NCBI GenBank assembly: GCA_963801165.1
Contig: CAWDDT010000005.1
Location: forward strand, 288,001-352,000
From: an uncultured bacterium
GTDB taxonomy: Bacteria > Actinomycetota > Acidimicrobiia > Spongiisociales > UBA5794
DNA length: 64,000 nucleotides
Direction: 5' to 3'
Shown here: positions 4,460 through 53,027 of the stretch, piece after piece
How the letters are laid out: the number at the start of each line of letters is the position of its first letter
How positions within the stretch are numbered: the stretch's first letter is position 1
The notes under the pieces: model-generated
The model's input: only the letters and a program-made list of their open reading frames with translations
The model's database searches: none
Told to the model about the DNA's origin: nothing
Position numbers and translations under genes: made by a program

Positions 4460-4473
4460 CGTCGTACAGATCG

Positions 4474-5117: not shown

Positions 5118-5320
5118 AGGACCAGTGTAGCACGGGGTATGTGAGATGCTCATAGGTCGACCGTATCAGACAACGAGCCCACCCTCCATCCCTGTGCGCG
5201 GACGGCTGCTGGCAGGAGACCACTCCGTGGTGGCCACCCGAGCTTTGACCGTCGGCGAGTTCGAGCCCGGTCTGGCTTCGTTCCGTACGCCGTACTCCGA
5301 CCGCAACCCGAGACGCTCGG

Positions 5321-5350
5321 AGCCCCCGGTCACCGAGGTGACCGGGGGCT
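5321..5350 (-). terminator. Hairpin terminator of the giant surface-protein gene
   Basis: AGCCCCCGGTCACC-GA-GGTGACCGGGGGCT perfect 14-bp stem about 50 nt past the stop codon. Confidence 0.75.
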
Positions 5351-5352
5351 TG

Positions 5353-5394
5353 TCGAGGCCGGAACTTCGTTCCTATCGAGGCCGGAACTTCGTT
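5353..5394. repeat. Tandem duplication of TCGAGGCCGGAACTTCGTT (period 23)
   Basis: Exact 19-mers at 5353-5371 and 5376-5394. Confidence 0.9.
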
Positions 5395-5399
5395 GGGCG

Positions 5400-8300
5400 C
5401 TACATCTCGCGACGCTTTCGGGAGTAGAGGACCATGCCTGCGCCTGCGGAGAGCATCATCAGGGCGGCGATGAACAGATCGCCGAAGTTGCCGCCGGTGA
5501 ACGGGAGCGTGTCGGGCGGCGGCTCGTCGCCACCCGGGGGATCCTCGGGACCGGGCAACGTAACCGGGGTCACCGCAATGGTGTGGGTGTGCAAGATGCA
5601 GATCTGCGGGACGTCGTCGTCGCAGACCTGAACAACGATCTGGTAGGTGCCGATCTCCTCGGTGACACCGCTGAACGTACCGTCGGGGTTGAGCGTGATC
5701 CCGGGTGGCAGCTCACCGCTGACGTAGGTGACCGTCACCGGGCCACCGTCGGGATCCGAAACCGGGATCGGCGATAGCGGGTCGCCGACGACGACCGACT
5801 GGAACGAAGCTTCCGGCCCGGGTGGCTGGTTGACCTTGTTGACGGTGACGGTGACCGTCGCCGTGTCGCACAGACCAGTCGCCGGGACACCACCGACCGG
5901 ACCGCCCACCTCACAGATCGTGTAGGTGAACGTGTCGGTGCCGACAAACCCGGAATTCGGCGTGTAGGTGATGGTGCCGTCGGGGTTGACGACGACGGTG
6001 CCGTTGAGCGGAGGGGTCGTACTGTCGACCGCGAAGGCGTGGCCGTCCGGGTCGCTGTCGTTGCTGAGCACCGAGATGACCACCGGTGTGTCCTGGTCGG
6101 TGACAGCACTGTCGTCGACTGCAACCGGGGGACGGTTGCCCACCAGCGGGAAGTCGACATCGAGATCGGTCTCACCGGCACCGAGCGTCAGCGTGACCGG
6201 TGGGGCCGTGCCGAGATCAGCCGGGATGGTCGCATCGTCCATCTCGACCCGGTATCCGCCTGCCGGAAGACCATCGACCAGGTACCGACCGTCGGGGTCG
6301 GTGACTGTCGTGAACACGATGTCGTCGGCCGTACCGATGACGCCGTCGCCGCCTGCCCAGGTCACATTGACGGTGACACCCGCCACACCCGGCTCACCGG
6401 CGCCGAACACACCGTTCCGGTCGACATCCTCGAACACCTGATCGCCGATGCTGCCCGAACCGGCCAGCGGGAAGTCCGCATCGTCACGAGCCTCCGCCGC
6501 CACCAGCGTCACCATCTGGCTCGTGGCGCCGGTGAGACCCGCCGGAACATTACCGATGACGACACTGAAGTCACCGGCGGGGAGACCGTCGACCTCGTAC
6601 CGACCGTCAGATGTCGTGGTGGTGGTGAACACCAGATCGTCGCCGCCGCCGATGACGCCGTCCGGGCCGAACCAGGTGACGGTGACGTCCACACCACCGA
6701 TGCCCGGCTCACCCGGATCCTGGACGCCGTTGCCGTCGAGATCGAGGAACACCTGGTCGCCGATGGAGCCGGTGGCCGTGTAGGCGAAGTCGATGGTGTC
6801 TCCCGTCGAACCCGGCGGCAGGGTCAGCGTGGTAGCGCTGTCGAGGGTGCCGTCGGGGTCGACGGTCGGGAAGTCGACACCGGCGGGGAGGGCGCCCGTG
6901 TCGACCGTGATCTCGTAGAGCCCGGGCGGCACCAGGTCGAAGCCGTAGTTGCCGTTGCCGTCGGTGGTCGTGTTGAGCACCTCATCGTCTGCGGTGCCGA
7001 AGACCCCGTCGAGACCCGCCCAGGTGGCCGCCATCGGGATCCCGTCGAGACCGATGTCGCTCGGGTCGATGACGCCGTCGCCCGCCACGTCGTGGGCGAT
7101 GGTGCCGCTCAGATTGCCGCGAGCCAGCGCCACCACGTCGGCGTTGTCCTCGTCGGATAGTGCGTTCCCGAGCGGGTCGGTGGCGGTGACGGTGGCAGTG
7201 TTGGTGAAATCGTCGGTGGCTGTGACGACGCACGTGTAGGAAACCGGCGGTGAGCCGACGGGCAGGTCGCCGATGGCGTTGTCGCAGGCCGGGACCAGCG
7301 GGTCGGTGACGGCGACCTTGGTCAGGTCGGTCTGGCCGGTGTTGGTGACGATGATGGTGAAGGTGGCGTCGTCGCCCTCGACCACGGTCTGGATGTCGGG
7401 GGTCTTCTGGATGTCGATACCGGGCACGAGCACGGTGACGTCTGCAGTGTCGCTGTCGGTGACCTCGAGCCCGATCGGGTCGGTTCCGGAGACATCGGCC
7501 GTATTGGTGAAGCCGGCGGTGACATCACTCACAGTGCACGTGTATGAGGTGCTGGCTCCGGCCGCCAGGTCGCCGATGGTGCCGTCGCAGGCGGGCACCA
7601 GGGCGTCGGTGACGGTGACACCGGTCAGGTCGACGTCGCCGGTGTTGGCGACCTCGATGGTGAAGGTGGCAGCGTCGCCGGCGACCACGGTCTGGCCGTC
7701 GGGCGACTTCTGGATCGAGATGGCCGGAGCGATCACATCGACGTAGGCGCTGTCGCTGTCGGTGACCGGGTTGCCGATCGGGTCGTCACCGGTGACGTCT
7801 GCGGTGTTGGTGAAGTCCGCGGCGCCCGCGGTCATCGAGCACGTGTAGGAGGTTGTGTCACTGACGGCAAGGTCGCCGACGACGTTGTCACAGGCCGGGG
7901 CGGTGGCGTCGGTCACAGTGACGTTGCTGAGCGCCACGCCACCCGTGTTGGTGACGGTGATGGTGAAGTCGACCGTGTCGCCGGTGCGGGCCTGCTGCAG
8001 ATCCGGGGTCTTCTGGATCTCGATACCCGGCACGACCACGGTCACGTCCGCCGTGTCGCTGCCGGTGACCGTTGCCCCGATCGGGTCGGTGCCGGTGGCG
8101 GTCGCCGTGTTGGTGAAGTCCGCGGTGACGCCGGCGAGCGAGCAGGTGACGGTCGTGGTTGCTCCAACGGCCAAGTCGCCGACGGTCGTGTCACAGTCGG
8201 GCGCAAGCGGGTCACTCACCGTGACCCCGGTCAGATCGACATCGCCGGTGTTGGAGACGGTGATGGTGAACGTCGCCGTCCCGTTGACCACGATGGCCTG

Positions 8301-11300
8301 GTTGCCGGGGGTCTTCTCGATGGCGAGACCCGGAGCAATCACGTCGACGGCGGCATCGTCGGAGTCGGACACCGGGTTTCCGAGCACGTCGCTGCCGGCG
8401 ACCGAGGCGATGTTGGTGAAGTCGGCAATGACGCCCGCTGCGGTGCAGTCATATGACGTGCTCTCCCCGACCGCCAGGGCGGCGATGGTGTTGTCACACG
8501 CCGGAGTCAGCGCATCGGTGACGGTGAGGTCGACCAGCTCCTGGTCGCCGGTGTTGGTGACGGTAATGGTGAAAGTGACGTCTTCGCCGCTGTGGATCTG
8601 CTGGGTGTCGGGAGTCTTCTGGATCTCGACGCCGGGGGTCACTATCTCGACCGCGGCATCGTCGCTGTCGCTCACCTGGGTACCGATCGGGGTGTCGGCG
8701 GTTGCCGTGGCTACGTTGGTGAAGCTCGCCGGCACACCGGTGACGGTGCAGGTGACCGTTTCGCCAGCGCCGATGGTGAGTGAGGCGAACGTGGCGTCAC
8801 AGCCCGGGGCGAGCGGATCGCTGACCACGATGTTGGTGAGATCGGTGTCGCCGGTGTTGGTGACGGTGACCGTGAACGAGGCGTCCTCACCGGCCAGCAG
8901 CGTCTGCAGGTTCGGGGTCTTGCTGACCGTGATCGCCGGGTCGACGAAATCGACGTCTGCCGTGTCGCTGTCGGCGACGGGGTTGCCCAACGGGTCATCG
9001 GCGGTGACCGAAGCGGTGTTGGTGAAGTCGGCGGCTACCCCGGTGACGTCGCAGTCGTACGAGGTGCTCTCACCGATCGCCAGCGCGGCGATGGTGGCGT
9101 CACATGCCGGGGCGAGGGGGTCGCTGACCGTGATGTTGTTGAGCGGGGTGGCTCCGGCATTGGTGACGGTAATGGTGAACGTCGCCGTTCCGCCGGGGCC
9201 GACCAGCTGGGTATCGGGTGTCTTCTGGATGTCGATGCCGGGCAGCAGCACGGTGACATCTGCGGTGTCACTGTCGGAGACCGGGCCGACCGCGCTGTCT
9301 GCGGTGACCGAGGCGGTGTTAGTGAAGTCGGCGGCGGTGGCGGTGCCGTCGCAGGCATAGGTCTCGGTAGCGCCGACGGCCAGGGAGGCGAAGGTGGCAT
9401 CGCAGGCCGGGGCGAGGGCATCGGTGACGACGACGTTGCTGAGGTCGATGTCGCCGGTGTTGGTCACCCCGATGGTGAAGGTCGGCGTGCCGTTGAGCCC
9501 GACCGACTGAAGGTCAGGGGTCTTGGCGATGCTGACCGCCGGGTTGACCACATCGACGTCGGCGCTGTCACTGTCCGTCGCCGGGTTGCCCACCGTGTCG
9601 GTAGCGGTGACAGCGGCGACGTTGGTGAAGTCGTCGGTGACCACGTTGACCGTGCAGTCGTACGAGGTGCTCTCCCCGACCGCGAGGGCGGCGATGGTGG
9701 TGTCGCAGGCCGGGGCCAATGCGTCGGTGACGGCCACGTCGATGAGCGGCACGACACCGGCGTTGGTGACCGTGATGGTGAAGGTCACGTCGCTGCCCGG
9801 TGCGGCCAGCTGGGTGTCGGGGGTCTTCTGGATGTCGATCTGCGGCACCAGCACCACCACGTCTGCGCTGTCGGAAGCGGTCACCGTGCCGCCGGCGGGA
9901 TGGGTGGCCACCACCGATGCCGTATTGGTGAAATCGGCTGTGACATCGGCGACGGTGCAGTTGACGGTCTGGGAGGCGCCGATCCCGAGGTTCGGGATGA
10001 CGGCGTCGCAGCCGGGTGCCCGCGGATCGCTGATGGTGACATCGGTAAGCGGGCTGTCGCCGGTGTTGCTGACGGTGATGGTGAAGGAGGCGTCCTCACC
10101 GGCCAGGAGTTGCTGGAGCGCCGGGTCCTTGGCGAGGCTGATTGCCGGGTTGATCACCACAACGTCTGCGGTGTCCTCGTCGGTGACGGTGCCACCGGCG
10201 GGGTGGGTGCCGACCACCGAGGCAGTGTTGGTGAAGTCTGCACCGACCCCGGTCGCAACGCAGCTGTAGCTGGTGGAGGCGCCGGCCGCCAGGTCGCCGA
10301 CAGTCGCATCGCAGGCGGGCACCAGGGCGTCGGTCACGGCGACATCGGTCAGATCCACATCGCCGGTGTTAGTGACGGTGATGGTGAAGGTGGCGTCGCT
10401 GCCGCTGGTTACGAACTGGCTGTCGGGGGTCTTGTCGATAGTGATCGCCGGGTTGACCACGTCGACGGCAGCGTCGTCGGAATCGCTCACTGTGTTGCCC
10501 AGCGAGTCGTCGCCAACCACCGAGGCGGTGTTGGTGAAGTCTGCTGTAACGGCCGGGACGGTGCAGGTGTACGAGGTGTTGGCGCCGACGGCGAAGTCGC
10601 CGATGGTGGCGTCGCAGTCGGGGGCGGCCGGGTCGGTCACCTGGACGCCGGTGAGGTCGACGTCGCCGCTGTTGGTGACCGTGATGGTGAACGTCGCATT
10701 CTGACCAGCGAGCACCGGGGTGTTGTCGGCGGTCTTGGTAAGTGTGATCGCCGGGGCGATGACATTGACGTCGGCAGTGTCCTCGTCGGTGACGGTACCG
10801 CCGAGCGGGTGGGTGCCAACGACGGACGCCGTGTTAGTGACGTCGGCGGTGAGCGCCGGCATCGTGCACGAGTACGTGGTCGCCTCGCCGGAAGCCAGAT
10901 CGCCGATCGCGGCGTCACAGCCGGGCGCCAGAGCGTCGGTGACGGAGACATCGGTCAGCGGGTCGGTGCCAACATTGGTGACGGTGATAGTGAAGGTGGC
11001 GTCGACGCCGATGACGATGACGGGGGTATCTGCGGTCTTGACGATCTCGATCGCCGGGGCGCTGACGATGACGACGGCGTCGTCGCTGTCGCCGACCGGG
11101 TTGCCCAGCGGGTCGGTGGCCGTGACGTCGGCGACATTGGTGAACCCGGTGGTTACCCCGACCACTGTGCAGCCGTAGCTAGCGGTCTCGCCGGCGGCGA
11201 GGTTGCCGATGGTGCCGTCGCAGCCCGGCGCCTGGGCGTCGGTGACGGCGACATCGGTCAGATCGACATCACCGGTGTTGGTGACCGTGATCGTGAAGGT

Positions 11301-14300
11301 GGCGTCGTCGCCTGCGAGGACCGTCTGGGTGTCCGGGGTCTTGGCGACGGTTATCGCCGGGTCGATGACGTCGACGGCGGCGCTGTCGCTGTCGGTCACC
11401 GAACCGCCGGACGGGTCGTCGGCGGTCACATCGGCGACGTTGGTGAAATCAGCGGTGACTGCTGGCACCGTGCAGTCGTACGTCTCGGTGGCGCCGATAG
11501 GCAAGGCGGCGAAGGTAGCGTCGCAGGCCGGAGCCAGCACGTCGGTGACGACGACGTTGGAGAGTTGGGCATCGCCGCTGTTGGTGACGGCGATGGTGAA
11601 GGTCACGTCGGAACCGGTGAGCACGGTCTGGGTGACCGGGGTCTTGGTGATGCTGATCTCGGGGGCGATCACCTCGACGTCGGCCACGTCGGAATCCGTA
11701 ACCGGGGTCGGTGTCGCCGGGTGCTCGGCAACGACGACGGCGACGTTTGTGAGGTCGGCGGTGACGTTGTCGAGGGTGCAGCTGTAGGTGACGCTCTCCC
11801 CTGCCGCCAGTGACGGGTAAGTGGCGTCGCAGTTGGGGGCCTGGGCGTCGGTGACCACGACGTTGTCCAGGGAGACATCGCCGATGTTGGTGACGGTGAT
11901 GCCGAACGTTGCAGTCGTCCCACCGAGGATGGTCTGGGAGGGTGGGTTCTTGGCGATGTCGATCGTCGGGCTGACCACGTCGACATCGGCCGTGTCACCG
12001 TCGTTGACCGGGGCGCCGAGCGGGTCGTCACCGGTGACCAGGGCTGTGTTGGTGAAGTCGTCGGACCCGGCGGTCATCGTGCAGCTGTAGCTGGTGGAGG
12101 CGCCCGCCGCGAGTGCGCCGATGACGTTGTCGCAATCGGAGGCCAGAGCGTCGGAGACGGCAACGTTGGCGAGATCCACATCGCCGTTGTTGGTGACGGT
12201 GATGTCGAAGGTCACCGTGCTTCCGGCGACAGCCTGCTGGAGGTCCGGCGTCTTCTGGATGTCGATGCCGGGGTCGATGACGTCGACGGCGGCTGTGTCG
12301 CTATCGGTCACCGGGTTGGCGAGCGGGTCGTTGCCAGTGACCGTGGCGGTGTTGGTGAAGTCGGTACCGCCCGTGGTCATGGTGCACGAGTACGTCTCGG
12401 AGGCGCCCGTGGCGAGCGAGGCGAAGCTGCCGTTGCAGTTGGGGGCAAGCGGGTCGGAGACGGTCACGTCGGTGATGTCGACATCGCCGGTGTTGGTGAC
12501 GGTGATGTCGAAGGTCGCCGTTTCGCCTGCCACGATTTGCTGGCTGTCGGGGGTCTTGTCGATGGTGATCGCCGGGTTGACGACGGTGACGTCGGCGATG
12601 TCGGAATCGGTCACCGGGTTGCCGAGCGGGTCGTCGGCCGTGACCGTTGCGGTGTTGGTGAAGTCGTTCGTGCCGGCGGTCATCGTGCAGCTGTAGGTGG
12701 TGGAGGCGCCTGCCGCCAGGGTGCCGATCGTGGTGTCGCAGCCCGATGCCAGGGCATCGGTCACCGCAACGTTGCTAAGGCTCACGTCCCCGGTGTTGGT
12801 GACGGTGATGTCGAAAGTGACGGTGCCGCCGGCTGCGACGGTCTGCAGGTCCGGCGTCTTGTCGATCGTGATCGCCGGGCCGATGACATCGACAGCGGCC
12901 GTATCGGAGTCGGCGACCGGGTTGCCCAACGGGTCATCACCGGTAACCGAGGCGGTGTTGGTGAAATCGGCGGTGACTCCGGCGAGTGTGCACGAGTAAT
13001 CGGTGGAGACACCCGCGCCGAGCGTGCCGATGGTGGCGTCGCAGTCGGGCGCCAGAGCATCGGTGACCGTCACATTGTCGAGAGGAACGTCGCCGGTGTT
13101 GGCAACGGTGATGGTGAAGGTCGCATCGTCGCCACCGAGAATGGTCTGGAGGTCCGGGGTCTTGTCGATCGTGATCGCCGGGCCGATGACATCGACGTCG
13201 GCGGTGTCGCTGTCGGTGACCGCGTTGCCGAGCGGGTCGTCACCGGCCACAGAGGCGGTGTTGGTGAAGTCTGTGGAGCCCGCCGTCATGGTGCACGAGT
13301 ACGAGGTCGACGAACCAGCGGCGAGCGAGCCGACGTTGGCATCACAATCGGGCGCCAACACATCCGTCACCGCAACATCAGTCAGGTCGACGTCGCCGGT
13401 ATTCGCAACGGTGATATCGAAGGTCACCGTGTCCCCCGCCAGAGCCTGCTGTGTGTCGGGGGCCTTCTGGATGTCGATGGCCGGGTTGATGATGTCGACG
13501 TCGGCGGTGTCGGTGTCGCTGACCGGGTTGCCGAGCGGGTCGTCACCGGTGACTACGGCAGTATTGGTGAAGTCGACTGCCCCGGCCGTCATCGTGCACG
13601 AGTACGTGGTCGACGCGCCCGCAGCCAGCGGACCGATCGTGGCATCGCAGTTCGGCGCCACGGCGTCGGTAACCGCCACACCGTCGAGATCGACATCGCC
13701 TGCGTTGGTGACGGTGATGTCGAAGGGGACCGTGGCGCCTGCCAGAGCCTGCTGGAGGTTGGGGGTCTTGACAACGGTGATGGCCGGGTTGATCACGTCC
13801 ACGCCCGCGCTGTCGCTGTCGGTGACCGGGTTGCCGAGCGGGTCGTCACCGGTAACCGAGGCGGTGTTGGTGAAGTCTGTGGAGCCCGCCGTCATGGTGC
13901 ACGAGTACGTGGTCGAGGCACCCGCCGCCAGTGCGCCGACGGTTGTGTCGCAGTCCGGAGCGACGACATCGGCCACCGTCACGTCAGTCAGGTCCACGTC
14001 GCCGGTGTTGGTGACGGTGATATCGAACGTCACGGTGTCACCGGAAAGAGCCTGCTGTGTGCCGGGTGTCTTCTGAATGGCGATCGCCGGGTTGATGATG
14101 TCGACGTCGGCCGTGTCGGAGTCGGTCACCGGGTTGCCGAGCGGATCGTCACCTGTCACCACCGCGGTGTTGGTGAAATCGGATGCACCGGCGGTCATCG
14201 TGCAGGAGTAAGTCGCTCCGGCACCAACCACCAGGGTGACAAATGTTGCGTCACAGTCCGGAGCCAGCACGTCGGTCACGGCCACGTCGGTGAGGTTCAC

Positions 14301-17300
14301 ATCGCCTGTATTGGTGACCGTGATATCGAACGTCACCGTGTCACCGTCGTGAGCCTGCTGTGTGTCGGGCGTCTTTGCGACCGTGATCGCCGGGTTGATG
14401 ACGTCGACATCTGCCGTGTCCGTGTCGGTTACCGCGTTGCCCAACGGATCGTCACCGGTGACATCGGCAGTGTTGGTGAAGTCGGCGGTGACACCGGCGA
14501 CGGTGCAGCCGTAGGTCTCGATGGCGCCAACTGCGAGGGTGGCAAATGTCGCATCACAGTCCGGGGCCAGCGCATCGGTCACCGTCACGTCGGTCAGGTC
14601 CACATCGCCAGTGTTGGTGACCGTGATCGTGAACGTTGCATCGCCCCCGGCCACGACCTGTTGCAGGTCGGGGGTCTTCTGAATGGTGATCGCCGGGCCG
14701 ATGACGTCGACATCTGCGGTGTCGCCGTCGGTCACGGGGCTGCCCAGCGGATCGTCACCGGTGACATCGGCAGTGTTGGTGAAGTCGGCGATAACCCCAG
14801 CGACGGTGCAGCCGTAGGCCTCGGCGGCGCCAACTGCGAGGGTGGCGAATGCCGCATCACAGTCCGGGGCCAGCGCATCGGTCACCGTCACATCGGTCAA
14901 ATCCACGTCACCGGTGTTGGTCACCGTGATGGTGAACGTTGCGGTATCGCCGGCGAGGATGGTCTGCAAGTCGGGGGTCTTGTCGATGGTGATACCGGGG
15001 TTGATCACGTCCACAACGGCGGTGTCGGAGTCGGTCACCGGGCTGCCCAGCGGGTCATCGCCGGTCACCGTCACGTTGTTGGTGAAGTCGTCCGCGCCGG
15101 CGGTCATGATGCACGAGTAGCTGCTCGAGCCACCGGCAGCCAGCGAACCGATCGTGGCATCACAGTCCGGCGCAACCGCATCGCTCACGGTCACATTGGT
15201 CAGGTCCACATCGCCGGTGTTCGTCACCGTGATGTCAAACGTCACCGTGTCACCGTCGTGAGCCTGCTGGACATCCGGCGTCTTCTGAATGTCGATCGCC
15301 GGGTTGATCACATCCACATCGGCCGTGTCACTGTCGGTAACCGGGCTACCGAGCGGATCGTCACCGGTCACCGTCGCGGTGTTGGTGAAGTCATCCGCAC
15401 CGGCGATCACCGTGCACGAGTACGAGGTCGAGGCACCCGCAGCCAGCGTCCCAATGGCGGCGTCACAATCGGGAGCCACGGCATCGGTCACGGCAACGTC
15501 GGCCAGATCGACATCACCGGTGTTGGTCACTGTGACATCGAACGTCACCGTGTCGCCGACCAGCGCCTGCTGGACATCCGGCGTCTTCTGAATGTCGATC
15601 GCCGGGTTGATCACATCGACATCGGCCGTGTCGGAATCGGTAACCGGATTACCCAGCGGGTCATCGCCGGTCACCGTCACGTTGTTGGTGAAATCAACCG
15701 CACCGGCCGTCATGATGCACGAGTAGCTGCTCGAGGCACCCGCATCCAGAGCACCGACCGTGGCGTCACAGTCCGGAGCGACCGCATCGGTCACGGCCAC
15801 ATCGGTCAGGTCGACATCACCGGTGTTGGTCACCGTGATATCGAACGTGACAGTGTCACCGGCGTGGGCCTGCTGGGTGTCCGGGGTCTTCTGAATGTCG
15901 ATCGCCGGGTTGATCACGTCGACATCGGCAACATCGCTGTCGGAAACCCGGTTGCCGAGCGGATCGTTACCGGAGACCGAGGCGATGTTGGTGAAGTCGA
16001 GCGCACCGGCGTCCGTCGAGCAGTTGTAGGTGGTCGAGGCCCCGGCCGCCAGCGTGGCGAGCGAGGCATTGCAGGTCGGCGACATCAGGTCGGTGACCGC
16101 CACGTTGCTGAGATCTACGTCACCGGTGTTGGTCACCGTGATGCCGAAGGTCAACGTGCCGCCCGGCAGCGCCTGCTGGGTGTCCGGGGTCTTGGAGATC
16201 GTGATTGCCGGGTTGATCACATCGACATCGGCCGTGTCGCTGTCGGTCACCGGGTTGGCGAGCGGATCGTCACCCGTCACCGCAGCCGTGTTGGCGAAGT
16301 CATCCACACCGGCCGTCATGGTGCACGAATACGAGGTCGAGGCACCCGAAGCCAGCGAGCCGATCGTGGCGTCGCAGCCCGGCGCTACGGCATCGGTCAC
16401 GGCCACATCGGTCAAGTCGACGTCACCGGTGTTGGTCACCGTGATGTCAAACGTCACCGTGTCACCCGCCAGGGTCTGCTGCGTATCCGGAGTCTTGGAG
16501 ATCGCGATCGCCGGGTTGATCACATCGACATCGGCCGTGTCGCTGTCGGCCACCGGGTTGGCGAGCGGATCGTCACCCGTGACCGCAGCCGTGTTGGTGA
16601 AATCGGCGGTGACCCCGACGACCGTGCAGGTGTAGGTCTCGGTCGCACCTGCCGCCAGCGTGGCGAAGGTAGCGCCGCAATCCGGGGCGAGGACATCGCT
16701 GATCGTGACATCGGTCAGTGGCACGTCGCCCGTGTTGGTGACGGTGATCGTGAAGGTTGCATCGTCACCGGCAACGACGGTCTGGGTGTCGGGCGTCTTC
16801 TGAATGTCGAGGCCGGGGTTGATGGCGTCGACATCGGCGGTGTCGGAGTCGGACACCGGGTTGCCGAGCGGATCGTCACCGGCCACCGTTGCGGTGTTGG
16901 TGAAGTCCGTGGTGACTCCGGCGACGCTACAGGTGTATGTCTGAACGGCACCCACGGCCAACGCGGCAAACGTGGCGTCGCAATCCGGGACCAGAGCATC
17001 GGTGACCGACACGTCGGTCAGAGCGACGTCACCGCTGTTTGTCACCGTGATGGTGAAGGTCGCGTCGCCCCCGGCCAGCACCATCTGGTTGTCGGGAGTC
17101 TTTGCGATCGTGATTGCCGGGCCGATGACATCAACGTCGGCAGAGTCGCTGTCGGTGACCGTGTTGCCCACCTCGTCGTCGGCAGTAACGGTTGCGGTGT
17201 TGGTGAAGTCGGCGGTGACGCCAACCAATGTGCACGTGTAGGTGGTGGAGGCTCCGGCGGCGAGCGCCCCGATGGTGTTGTCACAGCCGGGGGCGCCGGG

Positions 17301-20300
17301 GTCGGTGACGACGACGCCGGTGAGGTCTTGCGGCCCCTGGTTGGTGACGGTGATCGTGAAGGCAGCGGTGCCGCCACCGACGACCTGCTGGTTCGCCGGG
17401 CCCTTGGCGATGGTGACCATGCCCGGATACGCATAGCCGAAGTCGACGTCGGCGACGGCGGCGTCGGCGACGGTGATCGCTTGGGGGTTGTTGCCGGTGG
17501 TCGAGGACATCCCGGCGGGCACGGTGGTCTCATCGACTGCAACCGTGTAGTCACCGTTGGGGACCGGCGGGAAGTTGTAGCTCCCGTCCACCGGGGTGGT
17601 GGCTGTGGCGACGACGGTGCCGGTGTCGTCACGTAGCTCGACCGTGATCCCGGCGAGCGGCGGCTCGACAGCATCGATGACAGTGTCGGCGTTCTCGTCG
17701 TTCCAGACGGTGCCGCTGATCGGGTAGGTGGGGAGGATGGCCCCGAAGTCGGCGGTGGCGAACGTGTCACCCGACTGGAGCGGGCTGGTTGCGACCGTTG
17801 TCGGTGTCGTCGGGACGTAGCCGGCGGGGAGGGAGGCCGTATCGACAACGGCGTCGTAGGCGCCCGGCGGCACGACGATGGAGTACGAGCCGTCGGCGGC
17901 AGTAACTGCAGATCCGATCGCGGTCCCGACTCCGTCGAAGACCGCGACGATGACACCACTGATGCCGGGCTCACCCGGATCCTGGACACCGTCGCCGTCG
18001 AGGTCGTTCCACACAAAGTCGCCGATGGTGACCGGAACATAGGCGCCTGCGTCGATGGTCGTGTCGGCGTCGCCGGAGATGACGGTGATCGGTGCCGTCT
18101 GCCCGGTTGCAGGGTCGGCGTCCGAGTCGGTGGCGTCGCTACCGACGTCGGCCGGGGAGAACTCGTAGGCGCCGGGGAGGACGAACTCCGCGACGTAGTT
18201 GCCCGGAGCCAGGGTGACGCTCCACAACCCGTTGCCGGCGGTGGTGTCGGTGGCGACCGGGGTGGCAGGATCGCCTGCGTCATAAACGTTGACGGTGGCT
18301 CCGACGATGCCGGGTTCGCCGGTGTCCTGGATGCCGTCGCCGTTGAGGTCGTCCCAGACCAGGTCGCCGACGGTGACCGGCTGGTAATAGCCGAAGTCGG
18401 CGTCGGTGTTGTCCTCGCCCTCGCCGAGGGTCACCGCATACGGCTCATTGCCGGTGGTGAGTACCGGGTTGCTGAACGGCAAGGTCGCCTCATTGACGTC
18501 GACGGTGTAGTCGCCGGGGGGCAGGTAGGTGAAGCTGTAAGCGCCGCCACCGGTGGTGACTGTGGTGGCCACTACCGCTCCGGTGCCGTCGAGCAGGTTG
18601 ACGGTGACACCGTCGAGACCCGGCTCACCGGGATCCGGGGTGCCGTCGCCGTTGAGGTCGTTCCACACGAAATCGCCGATCGAGGCCCTCTGGATGACAT
18701 CGGTGCTGTGGGTGTCGGTGTCGCTGGTCGGGTCGCCGTCGGTGTCGTCGCCGGTGACGGTAGCGGTGTTGACCAGCGGATCGGGATCTGTGGCCTGGAT
18801 GGTGTAGTCGGCGGTGAACACCCAGGTCTCGCCGGTTTCGAGCAGCCCGTCTCCGTCGTCTCCGCTGACGTAGGAGGCGGCGCCGGCGACATCGTCTGTG
18901 ACGGTGACGTTGGCAACCGGTGATCCGTCCGATGTCGAGTCATGGGACACGGTGAACCCGTAGGTGACGGTGTCTCCCACCAGCGCCGAGACCGGGCCGG
19001 TCTTGTTGATGACAAGCACCGGCAGGTGGTCGATGTCGGTCGAGTGGGTGTCGGTGGCCGCGGGCACGGAGTCGCCATCGAGATCGGTCCCCGTGACGGT
19101 GACGGTGTTGACCAACGGGTCGGCGTCGGTGCCGGCCACCGTGTAGCCAGCCTGGTACACCCAGGTCTCGGCGGCTTCGAGGAGCCCGTCGCCGTCGTCA
19201 CCGCTCACATAGGTGGCGCCGCCGGCGACATCGTCGCTCACCGCACCTACCGACACCGGCGAACCGTCCGAGCCGGGAGCGTGCGACACGGCAAAGGTGT
19301 AGGTCACGGTCTCGCCGATGGTCGCAGTCGCCGGCCCGGTCTTGTCCACCTGAAGGAGCGGAGCCCAATCGACGTCGACCGTCTCGGTGTCTGTGGCTTG
19401 CGGGATAGGGTCGCCGTCCGAGTCGGTGCCGTCGACGGTCACGTCGTTGGTGAGCGGGTCCGGGGTTGCTGCAGTGACGGTCTCGGTGGCGGTGTAGATC
19501 CAGGTCTCGTCGCTATCGAGGAGACCGTCGCCGTTGGTGTCGCCCGTCGGGCCGCTCAGCGTCAACCCGCGGGAGTCGACGACGGTGACCCCGGCGACCG
19601 GGGACATATCAGACGTCAGGGCATGGGCGACCGTGTACGTGTAGGTGACAGTGTCGCCGACCCCGGCCGGGGCAGGACCACCGACTTTGGTGACGGTGAG
19701 GGCAGGACGGAAGTCGACATCGACGCTGTGGCTGCCGGTGGCGTCGGTGATCGGGTCGCCGTTGCCGTCGGTGCCGGTGACGGTGGCCACGTTCACCAGC
19801 GGATCGGCGGTATCGAGCGGGACCGTGTAGTCGATCGTGTAGACCCAGGTCTCGCTGCCGTCGAGCAACCCGTCGCCGTCGGTGTCACCACTGAGTGTGG
19901 CCCCGGAGAGATCGACCACGTCGTCGCTGATCACCACGTCCACCGGGGAGCCGTCCGAGGCCGCGGTGTGGGTGACCGTGTATGTATAGGTGACGGTCTC
20001 GCCGACCGCAACCGGTCCGGCAGGGCCGTCCTTGACAACCTGGAGCTCTGGCTGGAAGTCGATCGGGTCGGTGACGTAGCCCGTGGTCGCGGGCAGGGTG
20101 TCGCTGAAGACCGTGGCCTCGTTCAGGATGTCCGTGACCGAGCCGTCGAATGTGTCGTCGACCTTGACCTGATAGGTGATCGTCATCGACTCGCCGACCG
20201 GGAGGTCGAAGCCGTCGGCGGCATCCACCAACACCGGCGGGACACCGTTGACGAGATCGGATTCGGCGCCGCCGGGGATGTTGTCCTCGACCAATGGGCT

Positions 20301-22583
20301 CGTGGTGGTCCCGGTACCCTCGATGAACAGGGTGGCCTGGTGGAAAATGCCGATGGTGAAGAAGGGGTTGGTGTCACAGACGTTGAGGGTCCAGGTCCCG
20401 GCTCCCGGCTGCCCGGCGAGCGACTCGAGTGCGGCAACGCCGACCGACCGCTCATAATCGGCAGGCGAGACGCTGTCCGCGCTGTTGTCGTCGAGTGGCC
20501 CTGTGGAATCCCCGTCGAAGAGCACGTCGTAGTTGTCGTCCCGGTCACCCGAGTTGCCCGAAGCCAGCACGACCTCGGTCCCGGCAGGCGAGGTCAGCGT
20601 CGCCCGGAGCTGGCCGCGGTCCGCATGGCTTGCGGTGAAGCCGAGATTGACATCCGAGATATCGGTCGCATCAGGTATGGAAAAGGTCACCCGGGTGGGC
20701 GCGCTGCAGTTCTGCGAGATGGTCAGATCCTGATCGACCAGCTGGCTCCACGACCCGGCCGTCGTGCCAACCGTCCATCCCGACACGAGCGTGGACTCGT
20801 CGACGTAGCTAGTCGCGGAAGGAAGCGGGTCGACTACAGAGATGTCGTCAATCGGGAACACGCCCGTGTTGTCCACGGTGACGGTGTAGGTGATGAGCTG
20901 GCCGGCGACTACAGGCCCGGTTGCGTCGGACGTCTTGGTGACCGTCACTTCCGGTTGGGCGACGGTGACGATCTCAGTCGCCGTGTCTGTGACCGTGGCA
21001 CCCGATGGCGCGGTACCGACGACAAATGCCGTGTTGGTGATGTGGCCGTTCTGCTCGTCTCCTGCGGTCACCGTGTAAGTGGCGGTGCACGTGAGGGTGT
21101 CGCCCGAGCTCAGCCCGGCGGGCATCGGCTCCGAACACGACAGGCTGCTCATACCGGGGAGCGGGTCAGTGATGGTGACGCCGGTGAGAGCGACGTTGCC
21201 GGTGTTGGTGGCGGCGAATTGGTATGTCAGGGTGTCACCGGTGGTCACCGTGGAAGAACCGTCCTCGTCGGCGTTGCCGATCAACGTCTTGCTGAGGTCG
21301 ATGTCGGCGAGCTCGGGCGGCACGCAGAACGAACCCGAGAGGTCGTAGAAGTTGATACCCGTGGAGTGACCCGTGTACGTCATCTGCCCCGTCGCCTGGT
21401 TCACCTGGTACAGGGCACCCGTGACAGTGGTTCCCCAGGTGTTGCCGTCGAGATCCGTTCCGAGCTGGACGTAATTTGGCGAGTTCTCGGTTGCGATATA
21501 CGTGAACACACCACTGTTGATGTTGTAGCTCCACCAATAGCCGGTGACCGCAGCGCTGTATCCGTCAACCACTGACCCGAACATGACAGGCTCCCCGTTG
21601 ACGGTGAGCACGGTGAGGTCGCCATAGTCGGGTCGCATGTCCCGGCCGAAAGCGGCTTCGAGGCCGTCCTCGGGTTGGTTGGGCGCCAACTGCTCCAGCG
21701 TGCCGGCCATGACCGCGGTTCCGTTGGTGGGATCGATGGCGATCCGGTAGATGCCGTTGGCGTCGCCGCCTATCTCGGTGGAGAAGTAGTAGTAGCCACC
21801 GTGATAGGTGGCCCCGGCAGACTCGAGGGTGCCGTTGATCTGGCCGGTGAGGTCGGCGAGTACACCTTCGGTGTCGTCGATGGGGTTCCACCAGTAGACA
21901 ACCGATCCGGATCCCCAGTAGACGAGACCGAGGTCGCTGTTGGATGCCAGGGCGTTCCGGTTCCCCGTGTTGAAGCTGGTCTGGAACTCGGCGGTGGCGA
22001 CACCGGTCCGGGTGTTGACGGAGTAGATGGTGTCGCCCGAGATGCCGATGATGTCGTTGGTGTCGCAGACGGCGGGAGGAACGGTGACGATGTTGACGGC
22101 GGCGCTGGCGCTGTTGTTGCCCGAATTGGGATCCGGCTGGTTGGAGGCGCTGATCCTTGCGGTGTTGGTTACGAAGGCGACGCTCGCCGCCTCGGCGGTG
22201 AGGTTCAGAGTATGGGTGGAACCGTTCGGCATGGACCCGACCGACCAGATGCCGGTAGCGCTGTCGTACGAACCCGTGGTCGCCGACGCAGACATGAAGG
22301 TGAACTCGGAAGGAAGAACGTCGCTCACGACGACGCCGGTTGTGTCACCGGGACCCGCGTTCGTAACAGTGACGGTGAACTCCACGGCGGTGCCGAGGAG
22401 GGCGGACCCGCTGTTGGCGACCTTGGTTATGGCGAGATCGGTAGCCCCGGGAGCAGCCGCGGCGGGCACCGCCCCGACCACCAATGACGTGATAGAAATG
22501 ACAAAAGCGGCAACTGCCGCCGCGCCCTTCTTGACACGAATCCCGAAGCGGGCATCACCGCTCGGGCTTGGGGAAGTACTCAT
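5400..22583 (-). CDS. Giant sortase-anchored repetitive surface protein / adhesin (DUF11/DUF7507-like Ig repeats, P-domain, SdrD-B-like, cadherin/Ig-like, LPXTG)
   Basis: Uninterrupted 5727-aa ORF. Signal peptide ends in VPAAA. Contains TITVTNTGDVDL repeats and IGDFVWNDLNGDG SdrD-B motifs. C-terminus is LPFTG + TM helix + RKRR. Confidence 0.93.
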   Translation of the reverse strand: MSTSPSPSGDARFGIRVKKGAAAVAAFVISITSLVVGAVPAAAAPGATDLAITKVANSGSALLGTAVEFTVTVTNAGPGDTTGVVVSDVLPSEFTFMSASATTGSYDSATGIWSVGSMPNGSTHTLNLTAEAASVAFVTNTARISASNQPDPNSGNNSASAAVNIVTVPPAVCDTNDIIGISGDTIYSVNTRTGVATAEFQTSFNTGNRNALASNSDLGLVYWGSGSVVYWWNPIDDTEGVLADLTGQINGTLESAGATYHGGYYYFSTEIGGDANGIYRIAIDPTNGTAVMAGTLEQLAPNQPEDGLEAAFGRDMRPDYGDLTVLTVNGEPVMFGSVVDGYSAAVTGYWWSYNINSGVFTYIATENSPNYVQLGTDLDGNTWGTTVTGALYQVNQATGQMTYTGHSTGINFYDLSGSFCVPPELADIDLSKTLIGNADEDGSSTVTTGDTLTYQFAATNTGNVALTGVTITDPLPGMSSLSCSEPMPAGLSSGDTLTCTATYTVTAGDEQNGHITNTAFVVGTAPSGATVTDTATEIVTVAQPEVTVTKTSDATGPVVAGQLITYTVTVDNTGVFPIDDISVVDPLPSATSYVDESTLVSGWTVGTTAGSWSQLVDQDLTISQNCSAPTRVTFSIPDATDISDVNLGFTASHADRGQLRATLTSPAGTEVVLASGNSGDRDDNYDVLFDGDSTGPLDDNSADSVSPADYERSVGVAALESLAGQPGAGTWTLNVCDTNPFFTIGIFHQATLFIEGTGTTTSPLVEDNIPGGAESDLVNGVPPVLVDAADGFDLPVGESMTITYQVKVDDTFDGSVTDILNEATVFSDTLPATTGYVTDPIDFQPELQVVKDGPAGPVAVGETVTYTYTVTHTAASDGSPVDVVISDDVVDLSGATLSGDTDGDGLLDGSETWVYTIDYTVPLDTADPLVNVATVTGTDGNGDPITDATGSHSVDVDFRPALTVTKVGGPAPAGVGDTVTYTYTVAHALTSDMSPVAGVTVVDSRGLTLSGPTGDTNGDGLLDSDETWIYTATETVTAATPDPLTNDVTVDGTDSDGDPIPQATDTETVDVDWAPLLQVDKTGPATATIGETVTYTFAVSHAPGSDGSPVSVGAVSDDVAGGATYVSGDDGDGLLEAAETWVYQAGYTVAGTDADPLVNTVTVTGTDLDGDSVPAATDTHSTDIDHLPVLVINKTGPVSALVGDTVTYGFTVSHDSTSDGSPVANVTVTDDVAGAASYVSGDDGDGLLETGETWVFTADYTIQATDPDPLVNTATVTGDDTDGDPTSDTDTHSTDVIQRASIGDFVWNDLNGDGTPDPGEPGLDGVTVNLLDGTGAVVATTVTTGGGAYSFTYLPPGDYTVDVNEATLPFSNPVLTTGNEPYAVTLGEGEDNTDADFGYYQPVTVGDLVWDDLNGDGIQDTGEPGIVGATVNVYDAGDPATPVATDTTAGNGLWSVTLAPGNYVAEFVLPGAYEFSPADVGSDATDSDADPATGQTAPITVISGDADTTIDAGAYVPVTIGDFVWNDLDGDGVQDPGEPGISGVIVAVFDGVGTAIGSAVTAADGSYSIVVPPGAYDAVVDTASLPAGYVPTTPTTVATSPLQSGDTFATADFGAILPTYPISGTVWNDENADTVIDAVEPPLAGITVELRDDTGTVVATATTPVDGSYNFPPVPNGDYTVAVDETTVPAGMSSTTGNNPQAITVADAAVADVDFGYAYPGMVTIAKGPANQQVVGGGTAAFTITVTNQGPQDLTGVVVTDPGAPGCDNTIGALAAGASTTYTCTLVGVTADFTNTATVTADDEVGNTVTDSDSADVDVIGPAITIAKTPDNQMVLAGGDATFTITVTNSGDVALTDVSVTDALVPDCDATFAALAVGAVQTYTCSVAGVTTDFTNTATVAGDDPLGNPVSDSDTADVDAINPGLDIQKTPDTQTVVAGDDATFTITVTNTGDVPLTDVTISDVLAPDCGATFATLAAGATETYTCTVVGVTADFTNTAAVTGDDPLANPVADSDTADVDVINPAIAISKTPDTQQTLAGDTVTFDITVTNTGDVDLTDVAVTDAVAPGCDATIGSLASGASTSYSCTMTAGVDDFANTAAVTGDDPLANPVTDSDTADVDVINPAITISKTPDTQQALPGGTLTFGITVTNTGDVDLSNVAVTDLMSPTCNASLATLAAGASTTYNCSTDAGALDFTNIASVSGNDPLGNRVSDSDVADVDVINPAIDIQKTPDTQQAHAGDTVTFDITVTNTGDVDLTDVAVTDAVAPDCDATVGALDAGASSSYSCIMTAGAVDFTNNVTVTGDDPLGNPVTDSDTADVDVINPAIDIQKTPDVQQALVGDTVTFDVTVTNTGDVDLADVAVTDAVAPDCDAAIGTLAAGASTSYSCTVIAGADDFTNTATVTGDDPLGSPVTDSDTADVDVINPAIDIQKTPDVQQAHDGDTVTFDITVTNTGDVDLTNVTVSDAVAPDCDATIGSLAAGGSSSYSCIMTAGADDFTNNVTVTGDDPLGSPVTDSDTAVVDVINPGITIDKTPDLQTILAGDTATFTITVTNTGDVDLTDVTVTDALAPDCDAAFATLAVGAAEAYGCTVAGVIADFTNTADVTGDDPLGSPVTDGDTADVDVIGPAITIQKTPDLQQVVAGGDATFTITVTNTGDVDLTDVTVTDALAPDCDATFATLAVGAIETYGCTVAGVTADFTNTADVTGDDPLGNAVTDTDTADVDVINPAITVAKTPDTQQAHDGDTVTFDITVTNTGDVNLTDVAVTDVLAPDCDATFVTLVVGAGATYSCTMTAGASDFTNTAVVTGDDPLGNPVTDSDTADVDIINPAIAIQKTPGTQQALSGDTVTFDITVTNTGDVDLTDVTVADVVAPDCDTTVGALAAGASTTYSCTMTAGSTDFTNTASVTGDDPLGNPVTDSDSAGVDVINPAITVVKTPNLQQALAGATVPFDITVTNAGDVDLDGVAVTDAVAPNCDATIGPLAAGASTTYSCTMTAGAVDFTNTAVVTGDDPLGNPVSDTDTADVDIINPAIDIQKAPDTQQALAGDTVTFDITVANTGDVDLTDVAVTDVLAPDCDANVGSLAAGSSTSYSCTMTAGSTDFTNTASVAGDDPLGNAVTDSDTADVDVIGPAITIDKTPDLQTILGGDDATFTITVANTGDVPLDNVTVTDALAPDCDATIGTLGAGVSTDYSCTLAGVTADFTNTASVTGDDPLGNPVADSDTAAVDVIGPAITIDKTPDLQTVAAGGTVTFDITVTNTGDVSLSNVAVTDALASGCDTTIGTLAAGASTTYSCTMTAGTNDFTNTATVTADDPLGNPVTDSDIADVTVVNPAITIDKTPDSQQIVAGETATFDITVTNTGDVDITDVTVSDPLAPNCNGSFASLATGASETYSCTMTTGGTDFTNTATVTGNDPLANPVTDSDTAAVDVIDPGIDIQKTPDLQQAVAGSTVTFDITVTNNGDVDLANVAVSDALASDCDNVIGALAAGASTSYSCTMTAGSDDFTNTALVTGDDPLGAPVNDGDTADVDVVSPTIDIAKNPPSQTILGGTTATFGITVTNIGDVSLDNVVVTDAQAPNCDATYPSLAAGESVTYSCTLDNVTADLTNVAVVVAEHPATPTPVTDSDVADVEVIAPEISITKTPVTQTVLTGSDVTFTIAVTNSGDAQLSNVVVTDVLAPACDATFAALPIGATETYDCTVPAVTADFTNVADVTADDPSGGSVTDSDSAAVDVIDPAITVAKTPDTQTVLAGDDATFTITVTNTGDVDLTDVAVTDAQAPGCDGTIGNLAAGETASYGCTVVGVTTGFTNVADVTATDPLGNPVGDSDDAVVIVSAPAIEIVKTADTPVIVIGVDATFTITVTNVGTDPLTDVSVTDALAPGCDAAIGDLASGEATTYSCTMPALTADVTNTASVVGTHPLGGTVTDEDTADVNVIAPAITLTKTADNTPVLAGQNATFTITVTNSGDVDLTGVQVTDPAAPDCDATIGDFAVGANTSYTCTVPAVTADFTNTASVVGDDSLGNTVSDSDDAAVDVVNPAITIDKTPDSQFVTSGSDATFTITVTNTGDVDLTDVAVTDALVPACDATVGDLAAGASTSYSCVATGVGADFTNTASVVGTHPAGGTVTDEDTADVVVINPAISLAKDPALQQLLAGEDASFTITVSNTGDSPLTDVTISDPRAPGCDAVIPNLGIGASQTVNCTVADVTADFTNTASVVATHPAGGTVTASDSADVVVLVPQIDIQKTPDTQLAAPGSDVTFTITVTNAGVVPLIDVAVTDALAPACDTTIAALAVGESTSYDCTVNVVTDDFTNVAAVTATDTVGNPATDSDSADVDVVNPAVSIAKTPDLQSVGLNGTPTFTIGVTNTGDIDLSNVVVTDALAPACDATFASLAVGATETYACDGTATAADFTNTASVTADSAVGPVSDSDTADVTVLLPGIDIQKTPDTQLVGPGGTATFTITVTNAGATPLNNITVSDPLAPACDATIAALAIGESTSYDCDVTGVAADFTNTASVTADDPLGNPVADSDTADVDFVDPAITVSKTPNLQTLLAGEDASFTVTVTNTGDTDLTNIVVSDPLAPGCDATFASLTIGAGETVTCTVTGVPASFTNVATATADTPIGTQVSDSDDAAVEIVTPGVEIQKTPDTQQIHSGEDVTFTITVTNTGDQELVDLTVTDALTPACDNTIAALAVGESTSYDCTAAGVIADFTNIASVAGSDVLGNPVSDSDDAAVDVIAPGLAIEKTPGNQAIVVNGTATFTITVSNTGDVDLTGVTVSDPLAPDCDTTVGDLAVGATTTVTCSLAGVTADFTNTATATGTDPIGATVTGSDTADVTVVVPGIEIQKTPDLQQARTGDTVDFTITVTNTGGVALSNVTVTDATAPACDNVVGDLAVSDTTSYTCSMTAGAADFTNTADVTGDDPIGNPVTDSDSAYVDVIAPAISIQKSPDGQTVVAGDAATFTIEVANTGDVDLTGVTVTDALVPACDGTIGDLAAGASTSYTCTVSDVTAGFTNTADVSGTDPIGLEVTDSDTADVTVLVPGIDIQKTPDIQTVVEGDDATFTIIVTNTGQTDLTKVAVTDPLVPACDNAIGDLPVGSPPVSYTCVVTATDDFTNTATVTATDPLGNALSDEDNADVVALARGNLSGTIAHDVAGDGVIDPSDIGLDGIPMAATWAGLDGVFGTADDEVLNTTTDGNGNYGFDLVPPGLYEITVDTGALPAGVDFPTVDPDGTLDSATTLTLPPGSTGDTIDFAYTATGSIGDQVFLDLDGNGVQDPGEPGIGGVDVTVTWFGPDGVIGGGDDLVFTTTTTSDGRYEVDGLPAGDFSVVIGNVPAGLTGATSQMVTLVAAEARDDADFPLAGSGSIGDQVFEDVDRNGVFGAGEPGVAGVTVNVTWAGGDGVIGTADDIVFTTVTDPDGRYLVDGLPAGGYRVEMDDATIPADLGTAPPVTLTLGAGETDLDVDFPLVGNRPPVAVDDSAVTDQDTPVVISVLSNDSDPDGHAFAVDSTTPPLNGTVVVNPDGTITYTPNSGFVGTDTFTYTICEVGGPVGGVPATGLCDTATVTVTVNKVNQPPGPEASFQSVVVGDPLSPIPVSDPDGGPVTVTYVSGELPPGITLNPDGTFSGVTEEIGTYQIVVQVCDDDVPQICILHTHTIAVTPVTLPGPEDPPGGDEPPPDTLPFTGGNFGDLFIAALMMLSAGAGMVLYSRKRREM
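7115..17420 (-). repeat. 34 tandem ~303-bp (101-aa) Ig-like repeats, each with two Cys
   Basis: Counted 34 K(T/x)P-x-x-Q-type repeat starts. Spacing of 303 bp read directly (e.g. 15281 vs 15584). Boundaries approximate. Confidence 0.9.
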
Positions 22584-22621
22584 TTTGGGTTCCAGCTTCT
22601 CGTCATCCTTGACCCGCCTCG

Positions 22622-22636
22622 GTTCCGGCCTCGACA
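22622..22636 (-). repeat. 15-bp inverted partner of 5351-5365
   Basis: + strand GTTCCGGCCTCGACA is the exact reverse complement of TGTCGAGGCCGGAAC at 5351-5365. Confidence 0.9.
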
Positions 22637-22648
22637 GATCCGAGCCTC

Positions 22649-22699
22649 GTATCGGCCCGCACTGTTCATGTATTTCGGCTAAATGTGAAGTAACTGGAG
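22649..22699 (-). promoter_or_regulatory. Candidate tandem sigma-28 (FliA/WhiG)-like promoters
   Basis: Minus strand CTCC-N16-GCCGAAAT and overlapping GAAA-N16-GCCGATAC upstream of the giant gene. Confidence 0.35.

Positions 22700-49770: not shown

Positions 49771-53027
<3,257 letters not shown>

Follow-up and report, generated by a model that had tools for sequence, protein, structure and literature searches.

Complementary leader and 3'-UTR elements flanking a giant adhesin gene in a genus of uncultured Acidimicrobiia

Introduction

To our knowledge, end-to-end pairing of bacterial mRNAs is known from a handful of short transcripts, and autoregulatory small RNAs (sRNAs) derived from 3' untranslated regions (UTRs) from a few Hfq-dependent cases. 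In icaR of Staphylococcus aureus, a 7-nt anti-Shine-Dalgarno motif in the 3' UTR pairs with the Shine-Dalgarno (SD) sequence and creates a substrate for RNase III (PMC3868564). In hbs of Bacillus subtilis, a 14-bp duplex that joins the 5' UTR to the 3' UTR modulates the access of RNase Y (PMC5737220). The Vibrio cholerae sRNAs OppZ and CarZ derive from 3' UTRs and repress their own operons, with OppZ triggering Rho (PMC7398697), and in ribosomal RNA (rRNA) operons leader-trailer helices flank the rRNAs (PMC10250234). Leader RNA is also able to ride on the polymerase, as described for putRNA of phage HK022. Here we describe a locus in which a 15-nt motif in the leader of a 17-kb surface-adhesin gene is matched by complementary units that come after the stop codon and before a GC-rich hairpin. 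The locus lies in a 64,000-nt stretch (hereafter the window) of contig C5 (CAWDDT010000005.1, positions 288001-352000) from the genome of an uncultured bacterium of the Acidimicrobiia (G000; assembly GCA_963801165.1; 4.55 Mb, 98% complete).

A first-pass annotation of the window had offered three explanations for this inverted repeat, namely recombination sites that invert the whole gene, pairing between the transcript ends or a 3'-UTR-derived RNA, and protein-binding sites that loop the locus, and had said that it knew of no described system with such a layout. That last statement was too strong, with icaR, hbs and OppZ/CarZ being close precedents. Comparison of the locus with genomes of 14 sister species (G001-G014) confirms, at the level of sequence, that leader motif and 3' units form a genuine pair of non-coding elements conserved in the genus.

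Results

The adhesin open reading frame (ORF; Table 1) has a signal-like segment at its N-terminal end and an LPFTG sortase anchor at its C-terminal end, together with DUF11/DUF7507 repeats and SdrD_B and cadherin-like domains, and its stop codon lies at 5400-5402. The 15-mer TGTCGAGGCCGGAAC is located on the plus strand at 5351-5365, its exact reverse complement at 22622-22636, and a copy with one mismatch (14/15), TATCGAGGCCGGAAC, at 5374-5388 (+). All three were recovered where the first-pass annotation had placed them, and so was the arrangement it described, with one copy in the leader 38 nt upstream of the ATG and two complementary copies between stop codon and hairpin.

A BLAST search with the leader region found matches in 11 of the 14 sister species, several of which align over 40-60 nt around the motif only. 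Alignment of 11 leaders gives a near-invariant block, GCUCGGAUCUGUCGAGGCCGGAACCGAGRCGGGUCANGGAAGACCGAGAA, with conservation far above that of the flanking sequence. A covariance model of this block (R1) identified exactly one site in 13 of the 14 sister genomes; ten of these had served to train the model, and the three new matches are G007 (50 bits), G013 (30.6 bits) and G011 (24 bits). No R1 match was found in G014 (67% complete). Beyond the genus, 118 genomes from 29 other genera of the family yielded two marginal matches only (23-25 bits). A pattern scan of 185,579 species genomes returned 43 loci, of which six are convincing leaders (67-76 bits), all from the genus and all already examined, and a scan of metagenomes with the leader pattern returned 50 loci with four convincing leaders, all on contigs without the 3' end. 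Neither the leader block nor the 3' units matched Rfam at the gathering score or at E values up to 5. All 14 leaders of the genus precede the N-terminus of the adhesin gene, which from its sequence appears to be a single orthologous giant LPXTG gene within one genus of uncultured Acidimicrobiia.

The leaders can be sorted by their loop. Type A, with the loop UGUCGAGGCCGGAAC or CGUCG..., is found in G000, G002, G003, G004, G005, G008 and G009, and the leader motif is identical or differs by one mismatch in the six type-A genomes other than G000. Type B, with the loop UGUCAAGGGCCAGGAC, is found in G001, G006 and G012, with G010 as a variant; types C and D and a weak type E are represented by G007, G013 and G011, respectively. 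Public sequencing runs contain strain variants, among them the loss of 1 nt at 22590 and C>T at 22617. The change at 22617 converts a U-G pair of the predicted leader stem to U-A in the mRNA, as in sister species, and no variant inside the leader motif is among the differences listed (326 further differences lie beyond that list). An upstream ORF in the G000 leader (AUG at -27) was rejected as a candidate element for want of conservation in the sister species.

The 3' ends were located with the C-terminal 150 aa of the adhesin, which matched in 9 of the 14 sister genomes. In each of the six type-A species with an assembled 3' end, G000 included, the stop codon and a GC-rich hairpin enclose a complement of the leader motif, and in every case the last unit adjoins the hairpin. 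The type-A genome G003 is outside this count as its gene runs off the contig. Two units are present in G000, in G004 and in G005, whose two gene ends are 17.3 kb apart on a single contig; G002 has four units and G008 one, and all that is left in G009 is a 9-nt remnant (GUUCCGGCC), which is fused to the hairpin at each of two paralogous ends. Tandem units recur with a period of 21-23 nt, and the arms able to fold each unit into a hairpin change together, being GUUCC/GGAAC in G000 and GUCC/GGAC in G005 and G002. Conservation in relatives holds at both ends of the gene (leader block in 13/14 sister genomes, 3' complement in 6/6 type-A species with a 3' end). Separately, the 3' regions of two loci binned to different genomes (L115, G001:C193; L123, G009:C5) share 230 nt without a difference, a stretch that takes in the C-terminal 45 aa, and this identity suggests shared or mis-binned contigs.

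In G000 the 106-nt 3' UTR with its hairpin has a folding energy of -55.4 kcal/mol (z -4.16), and 0 of 200 shuffles were as stable. The terminator of the first-pass annotation is a 13-bp GC-rich hairpin that follows the units at 5321-5350; it lacks a U-tract, and a consensus terminator scan made no call there.

The length of the repeat is by itself within chance expectation. The 15-mer is not a dispersed repeat, the genome-wide count that the first-pass annotation had suggested giving two exact copies in 4.55 Mb and five at up to one mismatch (three at the adhesin locus and two on contig C4), rising to 30 at up to two mismatches and 379 at up to three. The window contains a further match with two mismatches at 52960-52974, and at least four matches were found in 0 of 100 window shuffles (mean 0.34). 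However, exact inverted pairs are ordinary in the GC-rich window, which contains 20 such pairs of 15-mers and five of 16-mers. When 150 nt upstream was compared with 150 nt downstream for all 6018 ORFs of at least 200 aa in G000, spurious ORFs included, exact complementarity of at least 15 nt was found for two, the adhesin and one other, with one more at 14 nt, one at 13 nt and 12 at 12 nt. On this result G000 alone is insufficient for the claim, and the case built on these sequences is one of placement, tandem duplication and cross-species conservation rather than repeat length. The sole match in G039 is a chance match with three mismatches and supports no claim.

Contiguous complementarity between leader motif and 3' units is exact over 15 nt in G000, extends over 12-15 nt when G-U pairs are counted in G002, G004, G005 and G008, and spans 9 nt in G009. 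Pairing in register across 12 units (180 cells) comprises 145 Watson-Crick, 15 G-U and 20 mismatched cells, and within the 12-nt core of the same units (144 cells) the figures are 120, 15 and 9. Positions 2-12 of the 11 full units hold 14 G-U cells and one mismatch. Where the full CCGGCC core is present, departures from the leader complement are mostly G-U-compatible; of the substitution events, one is incompatible and about four are wobble-compatible (A to G opposite U or C to U opposite G). The bias has a p of about 0.04-0.1 by a binomial estimate with a crude model that takes 0.32 of all substitutions to be compatible, and it hints at kept pairing in a way that is suggestive, not decisive. 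Cofolding of the G000 leader with its 3' UTR yields a gain of -25.0 kcal/mol compared with -10.3 +/- 3.9 for 400 non-cognate 3' flanks, 3 of which were as low; the gain is also strong in G002 (1/120 controls as low) and G008 (2/120). A loop-loop kissing geometry is unsupported, with a predicted core accessibility of 0.26-0.90, and RNAduplex predictions on whole UTRs were set aside because they produced unrealistic full-length duplexes.

Searches for the 3' ends of genes with non-A leaders yielded none. Pattern searches for complements of the B, C and D loops gave matches that, where inspected, were chance matches in coding regions. An HMM search for the LPXTG anchor in five genomes recovered other giant genes and none of the missing 3' ends, and three other giant LPXTG genes show 5'/3' complementarity of at most 9 nt. 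A wobble-tolerant search for more 3' units in the genus was noisy, with 7-24 matches per genome, and all 11 candidates examined lay within open frames of at least 143 codons.

Could the complementarity have arisen once by chance in an ancestor, with a leader element and a 3' repeat-plus-terminator each conserved separately and for independent reasons? The flank match of equal length at about 2 in 6018 ORFs of G000 and the abundance of 15-mer inverted pairs in the window are consistent with such an origin, as are the close kinship of every carrier, the mixed support from cofolding and accessibility, and the lack of covariation in the leader stem or in the table of unit pairing. Two observations make us regard it as unlikely. 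For two non-coding elements of one gene, each conserved independently, the prior of complementarity across 12-15 nt is roughly 3 in 10,000. In addition, the number of units shifts between species (1, 2, 2, 2, 4) yet the complementary core is kept, and the changes from unit to unit are mostly wobble-compatible.

The leader block is predicted by RNAalifold to form a hairpin, with the consensus GRCGGGUC for the second stem strand. Across 14 leaders, 96.4% of 138 stem cells are paired, compared with 27-50% in slid controls, and the stem is preserved while the loop differs between species and in a metagenome variant. In this variant (L184, a 1.1-kb contig with the leader at 250-299) the stem is the same and the loop is replaced by GACAAGCCC, of which 11 nt (UCGACAAGCCC) equal the junction of last 3' unit and hairpin in G000 and G005. 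The match could reflect an exchange of sequence between the two gene ends, or coincidence.

Upstream of the leader lie conserved blocks that are candidates for a promoter or operator. The block GGTGACTAGTTAACC has as its counterpart in sister species the palindrome GTGACTAGTCAC, which is followed by 25 nt, CTCCAGT and then a CCGAWGAA piece; GTGACTAGTCAC and CTCCAGT are kept in 10 genomes of the genus. The location of the leader motif downstream of these promoter-like blocks suggests that it lies within the transcript. The palindrome also occurs elsewhere in G000, at C13:142861 and C6:2632; one of these sites has valS and an amidohydrolase gene on its two sides, and the other lies upstream of a DivIVA-like gene. 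A promoter element and a shared operator are both possible roles for it.

Phase variation would be an alternative use of the same layout, with the repeats as recombination sites at which a recombinase flips the whole 17-kb gene relative to its promoter. The inverted orientation fits, one arm separating the promoter from the start codon and its partner following the stop codon, and recalls the fimS and hin switches, in which a promoter segment of 0.3-1 kb flanked by short inverted repeats, one arm lying between promoter and gene, is flipped by a dedicated recombinase encoded nearby. Unlike those switches, the adhesin locus has no recombinase close by: none is encoded in the window, as the first-pass annotation had noted, and the 20 tyrosine-recombinase matches genome-wide lie no nearer than C5:562051 (more than 210 kb off), with one resolvase on C6. 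Its 3' arm also varies in tandem copy number, from one to four, and is reduced to 9 nt in G009. Each of the genus's 14 leaders is found in the ON arrangement. Both orientations were sought in Logan contigs of four public DNA runs over 4300-23800, although contigs can miss rare variants. Only colinear forms were seen, in two of the four runs (leader arm in X1 record 8 and X2 record 16; 3' arm in X1 record 2), and there is no inverted form among the contigs listed. Among the joints listed (15 of 27) none changes strand, those listed being skips or go-backs within the internal repeats of the gene. Inversion of the whole gene, the first of the annotation's three options, is disfavoured by the colinear contigs, the distance of the recombinases, the position of all 14 leaders before the N-terminus and the one-to-four-copy 3' site, and we consider it very improbable.

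A single large gene flanked by 15-bp inverted repeats might also be a mobile cassette, with the repeats as terminal inverted repeats of a non-autonomous element that carries the adhesin gene. Homology between species, however, passes both repeats, continuing upstream for 170 nt or more, across the promoter-like blocks, and on the downstream side across the hairpin; there is no transposase, one copy per genome, and the motif is nowhere else. Of all the explanations weighed here we give this one the least credence.

Protein binding to DNA offers a more substantial alternative. One protein would recognise a CRAGGCCGG core both in the leader, where it would serve as operator or roadblock, and in the 3' array, where it would mark a boundary, possibly bridging the two. 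The AGGCCGG core is invariant in 11 of 11 full units and in the leader, the 21-23 bp period of the tandem array approximates two helical turns, and variation lies at the edge of the site. Different GGCC-core tandem repeats follow the stop codon of other giant LPXTG genes, with no leader complement. On the other side, no regulator gene is adjacent, the leader copy is positioned downstream of the promoter-like blocks within a 55-nt block that resembles a transcribed leader, and the substitutions lean towards G-U compatibility, which alters a DNA site and keeps RNA pairing. Moreover, we know of no close bacterial precedent for site-specific looping across 17 kb, which also counts against such sites. 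We therefore view DNA-level sites as a minority possibility, on the unlikely side.

Arrays at other giant genes of the genus were observed directly after the stop codon at two places, in both cases with no leader complement: three copies of the perfect palindrome AUCAGGCCUGA at L146/L173 (G012:C101) and two copies of CCAGAGGGCCAAUCCC at L124 (G001:C169). Short tandem 3'-UTR repeats may, on these sequences, be a general feature of the giant LPXTG genes of the genus. Since such genes carry arrays without a leader complement, the 3' arrays might exist for a reason of their own.

Several further observations concern the gene and its surroundings. The G005 orthologue (L039, G005:C10) is broken over at least three reading frames, and that of G003 (L038, G003:C8) has a frameshift near L038:10430 followed by the contig end; these breaks could be assembly errors within repeats or genuine decay. 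Downstream of the adhesin hairpin lies a toxin-antitoxin pair (window 4474-5153, minus strand) that is missing from the equivalent position in G005. Two genes from the LPXTG adhesin, a 640-aa protein with SLH and CarboxypepD_reg domains is encoded at 23846-25768 (+), and with an SLH-domain protein so near an LPXTG adhesin, G000 apparently has two cell-wall anchoring systems. Elsewhere in the window, a 34-nt hairpin-type repeat (TCAGGTTTGAGTTCGGCC...GGCCGAACTCAGC) is present as two inverted copies that are 88% complementary (41192-41225 and 62685-62718) and looks like a small dispersed palindromic element.

Table 1. Features of the adhesin locus, in window coordinates and listed from the 5' to the 3' end of the gene.
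Feature	Position	Strand	Remarks
Upstream conserved blocks, candidate promoter or operator	22692-22734	minus	GGTGACTAGTTAACC at 22720-22734; CCGTCTCCAGTT at 22692-22703
Conserved leader block, 55 nt	22591-22645	minus	covariance model R1; once per genome in the genus
Predicted leader hairpin	22611-22640	minus	RNAalifold; stem GAUCUGUC / GGCGGGUC; loop GAGGCCGGAACCGA holds most of the motif
Leader motif UGUCGAGGCCGGAAC (mRNA sense)	22622-22636	minus	ends 38 nt before the ATG
Weak SD-like GGAA	22590-22593	minus	6 nt before the ATG; outside the 15-nt complementarity; G53/G54 nearly invariant in the leader alignment
Giant surface-adhesin ORF	5400-22583	minus	5727 aa; from ORF listing and domain search
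3'-UTR unit 1 GUUCCGGCCUCGAUA	5374-5388	minus	nearest the stop codon; complements the leader motif with one G-U pair
3'-UTR unit 2 GUUCCGGCCUCGACA	5351-5365	minus	adjoins the hairpin; perfect 15-nt complement of the leader motif
GC-rich hairpin, 13 bp	5321-5350	minus	directly after unit 2; terminator-like, no U-tract
RHH antitoxin-like ORF	4881-5153	minus	next to the adhesin hairpin
PIN-domain toxin	4474-4884	minus	pair with the RHH antitoxin-like ORF

Discussion

What the conserved elements most likely do, at a tentative probability of about 0.45, is to pair at the RNA level, 3' units with leader, and so feed back on translation or stability. Leader motif and 3' units would then be two halves of one RNA-level device. 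The 3' units would exist only after the whole gene has been transcribed, when they could pair with the hairpin loop and the 5' stem strand of the leader. Pairing might occur in cis, 5' UTR with 3' UTR, as for icaR and hbs, or in trans, with a terminator-bearing 3' fragment acting on new transcripts in the manner of OppZ/CarZ. Either route would reshape the leader and so alter ribosome loading and/or RNase access, the feedback linking further making of a very costly protein to completed transcripts, whether by repression or by stabilisation. RNase E/G is encoded in G000. Hfq (PF17209) was not found in this genome (98% complete), and therefore a mechanism of the OppZ/CarZ type would need to run without Hfq. 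The second option of the first-pass annotation, end pairing or a 3'-UTR-derived RNA, is the one that the comparative data favour most, with complementarity in 6/6 type-A species with a 3' end, and it is a hypothesis.

A number of observations weigh against RNA-level pairing. Both elements would have to lie on one 17-kb mRNA, whose transcription start and 3' end we infer from sequence. The leader hairpin that would receive the 3' units gains no statistical support from covariation, since no pair is changed on both sides in the 14 leaders and 396 of 500 shuffles were equally good; the leader folded alone is no better than shuffles (z +0.69). Leader position 1 changes from U to C in G002 and G008, where the 3' units are unchanged. 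The gain on cofolding falls within controls in G005 (21/120 as low), G004 (37/120) and G009 (45 and 86/120 for its two ends), and the predicted accessibility of the GGCCUYG unit cores is inconsistent, ranging from 0.26 to 0.90. The 15-nt complementarity is off the SD region, with the motif ending 38 nt before the ATG and the GGAA located at 22590-22593, and the variable positions cluster at one end of the site, as would also be expected of a protein-binding site. The six type-A genomes are not six independent observations, because kin inherit both elements by descent. Complementarity was followed in type A only, the genes with leaders of types B, C and D, among them the type-B genes of G001, G006, G010 and G012, running off their contigs, and a candidate type-B 3' end (G001:C169) is without complementarity to the type-B leader.

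A more elaborate role, that of a completion sensor for the giant gene, is conceivable and in our estimation quite improbable. Here the leader RNA would ride the elongating polymerase, as putRNA or rRNA leader elements do, and aid its passage through 17 kb. On emerging, the tandem anti-leader units just before the terminator hairpin would pair with the leader, dismantle its structure and restore termination, and would close or mark the finished mRNA. If this were so, one complementarity of 12-15 nt would connect the condition of the 5' end with the end of transcription. We know of no cis-acting end-of-gene signal of this kind described for any protein-coding gene.

If the leader and the 3' units do pair as RNA, the principle of end-to-end pairing would be extended to an mRNA of 17 kb, a span far beyond any other known, and to a multi-copy anti-leader array, and it would reach the Hfq-less, uncultured Acidimicrobiia of salt-marsh and soil. 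Very expensive surface proteins would be metered by a signal that is present only at transcript completion. Should the elements instead prove to be DNA-level sites or a coincidence, the locus would still be a clearly delimited regulatory region for a giant adhesin gene, specific to the genus.

The layout appears undescribed in Acidimicrobiia on the basis of the negative Rfam result and of literature searches aimed at precedents, none of which was aimed at this arrangement. Among the systems outlined in the Introduction, rRNA operons share the principle that complementary flanks of a long transcribed unit pair only once the whole unit has been made. Those helices are long processing stalks around non-coding RNA with an antitermination complex, whereas the putative adhesin pairing is short, multi-copy and placed around a protein-coding gene. 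The likeness to icaR lies in a 3'-UTR motif complementary to the leader of its own mRNA and in a surface- or biofilm-related function under post-transcriptional control. There the mRNA is short and 7 nt pair on the SD; the adhesin locus, known from sequence alone, has 12-15 nt located at least 38 nt upstream of the start, with one to four tandem units 17 kb apart from the leader. In hbs, a long-range duplex of leader and 3' UTR of similar length modulates RNase access and does not directly mask the SD, which resembles the mode of action suggested here. It differs in its very short mRNA, its single site and its cleavage by RNase Y/J1, the adhesin genome having RNase E/G in an RNase set that was partly checked. 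OppZ and CarZ differ in being gammaproteobacterial, dependent on Hfq and RNase E and equipped with a single seed, where the adhesin locus has a repeated seed, a genome in which Hfq was not found and a 3' fragment that is hypothetical. Their likeness is nonetheless close: the seed lies directly upstream of its own terminator, just as the last adhesin unit adjoins the hairpin in 6/6 species, and a 3' fragment pairs with its own transcript in negative feedback. In a long ORF such as that of the adhesin, a block of translation could in the same way expose the RNA to Rho.

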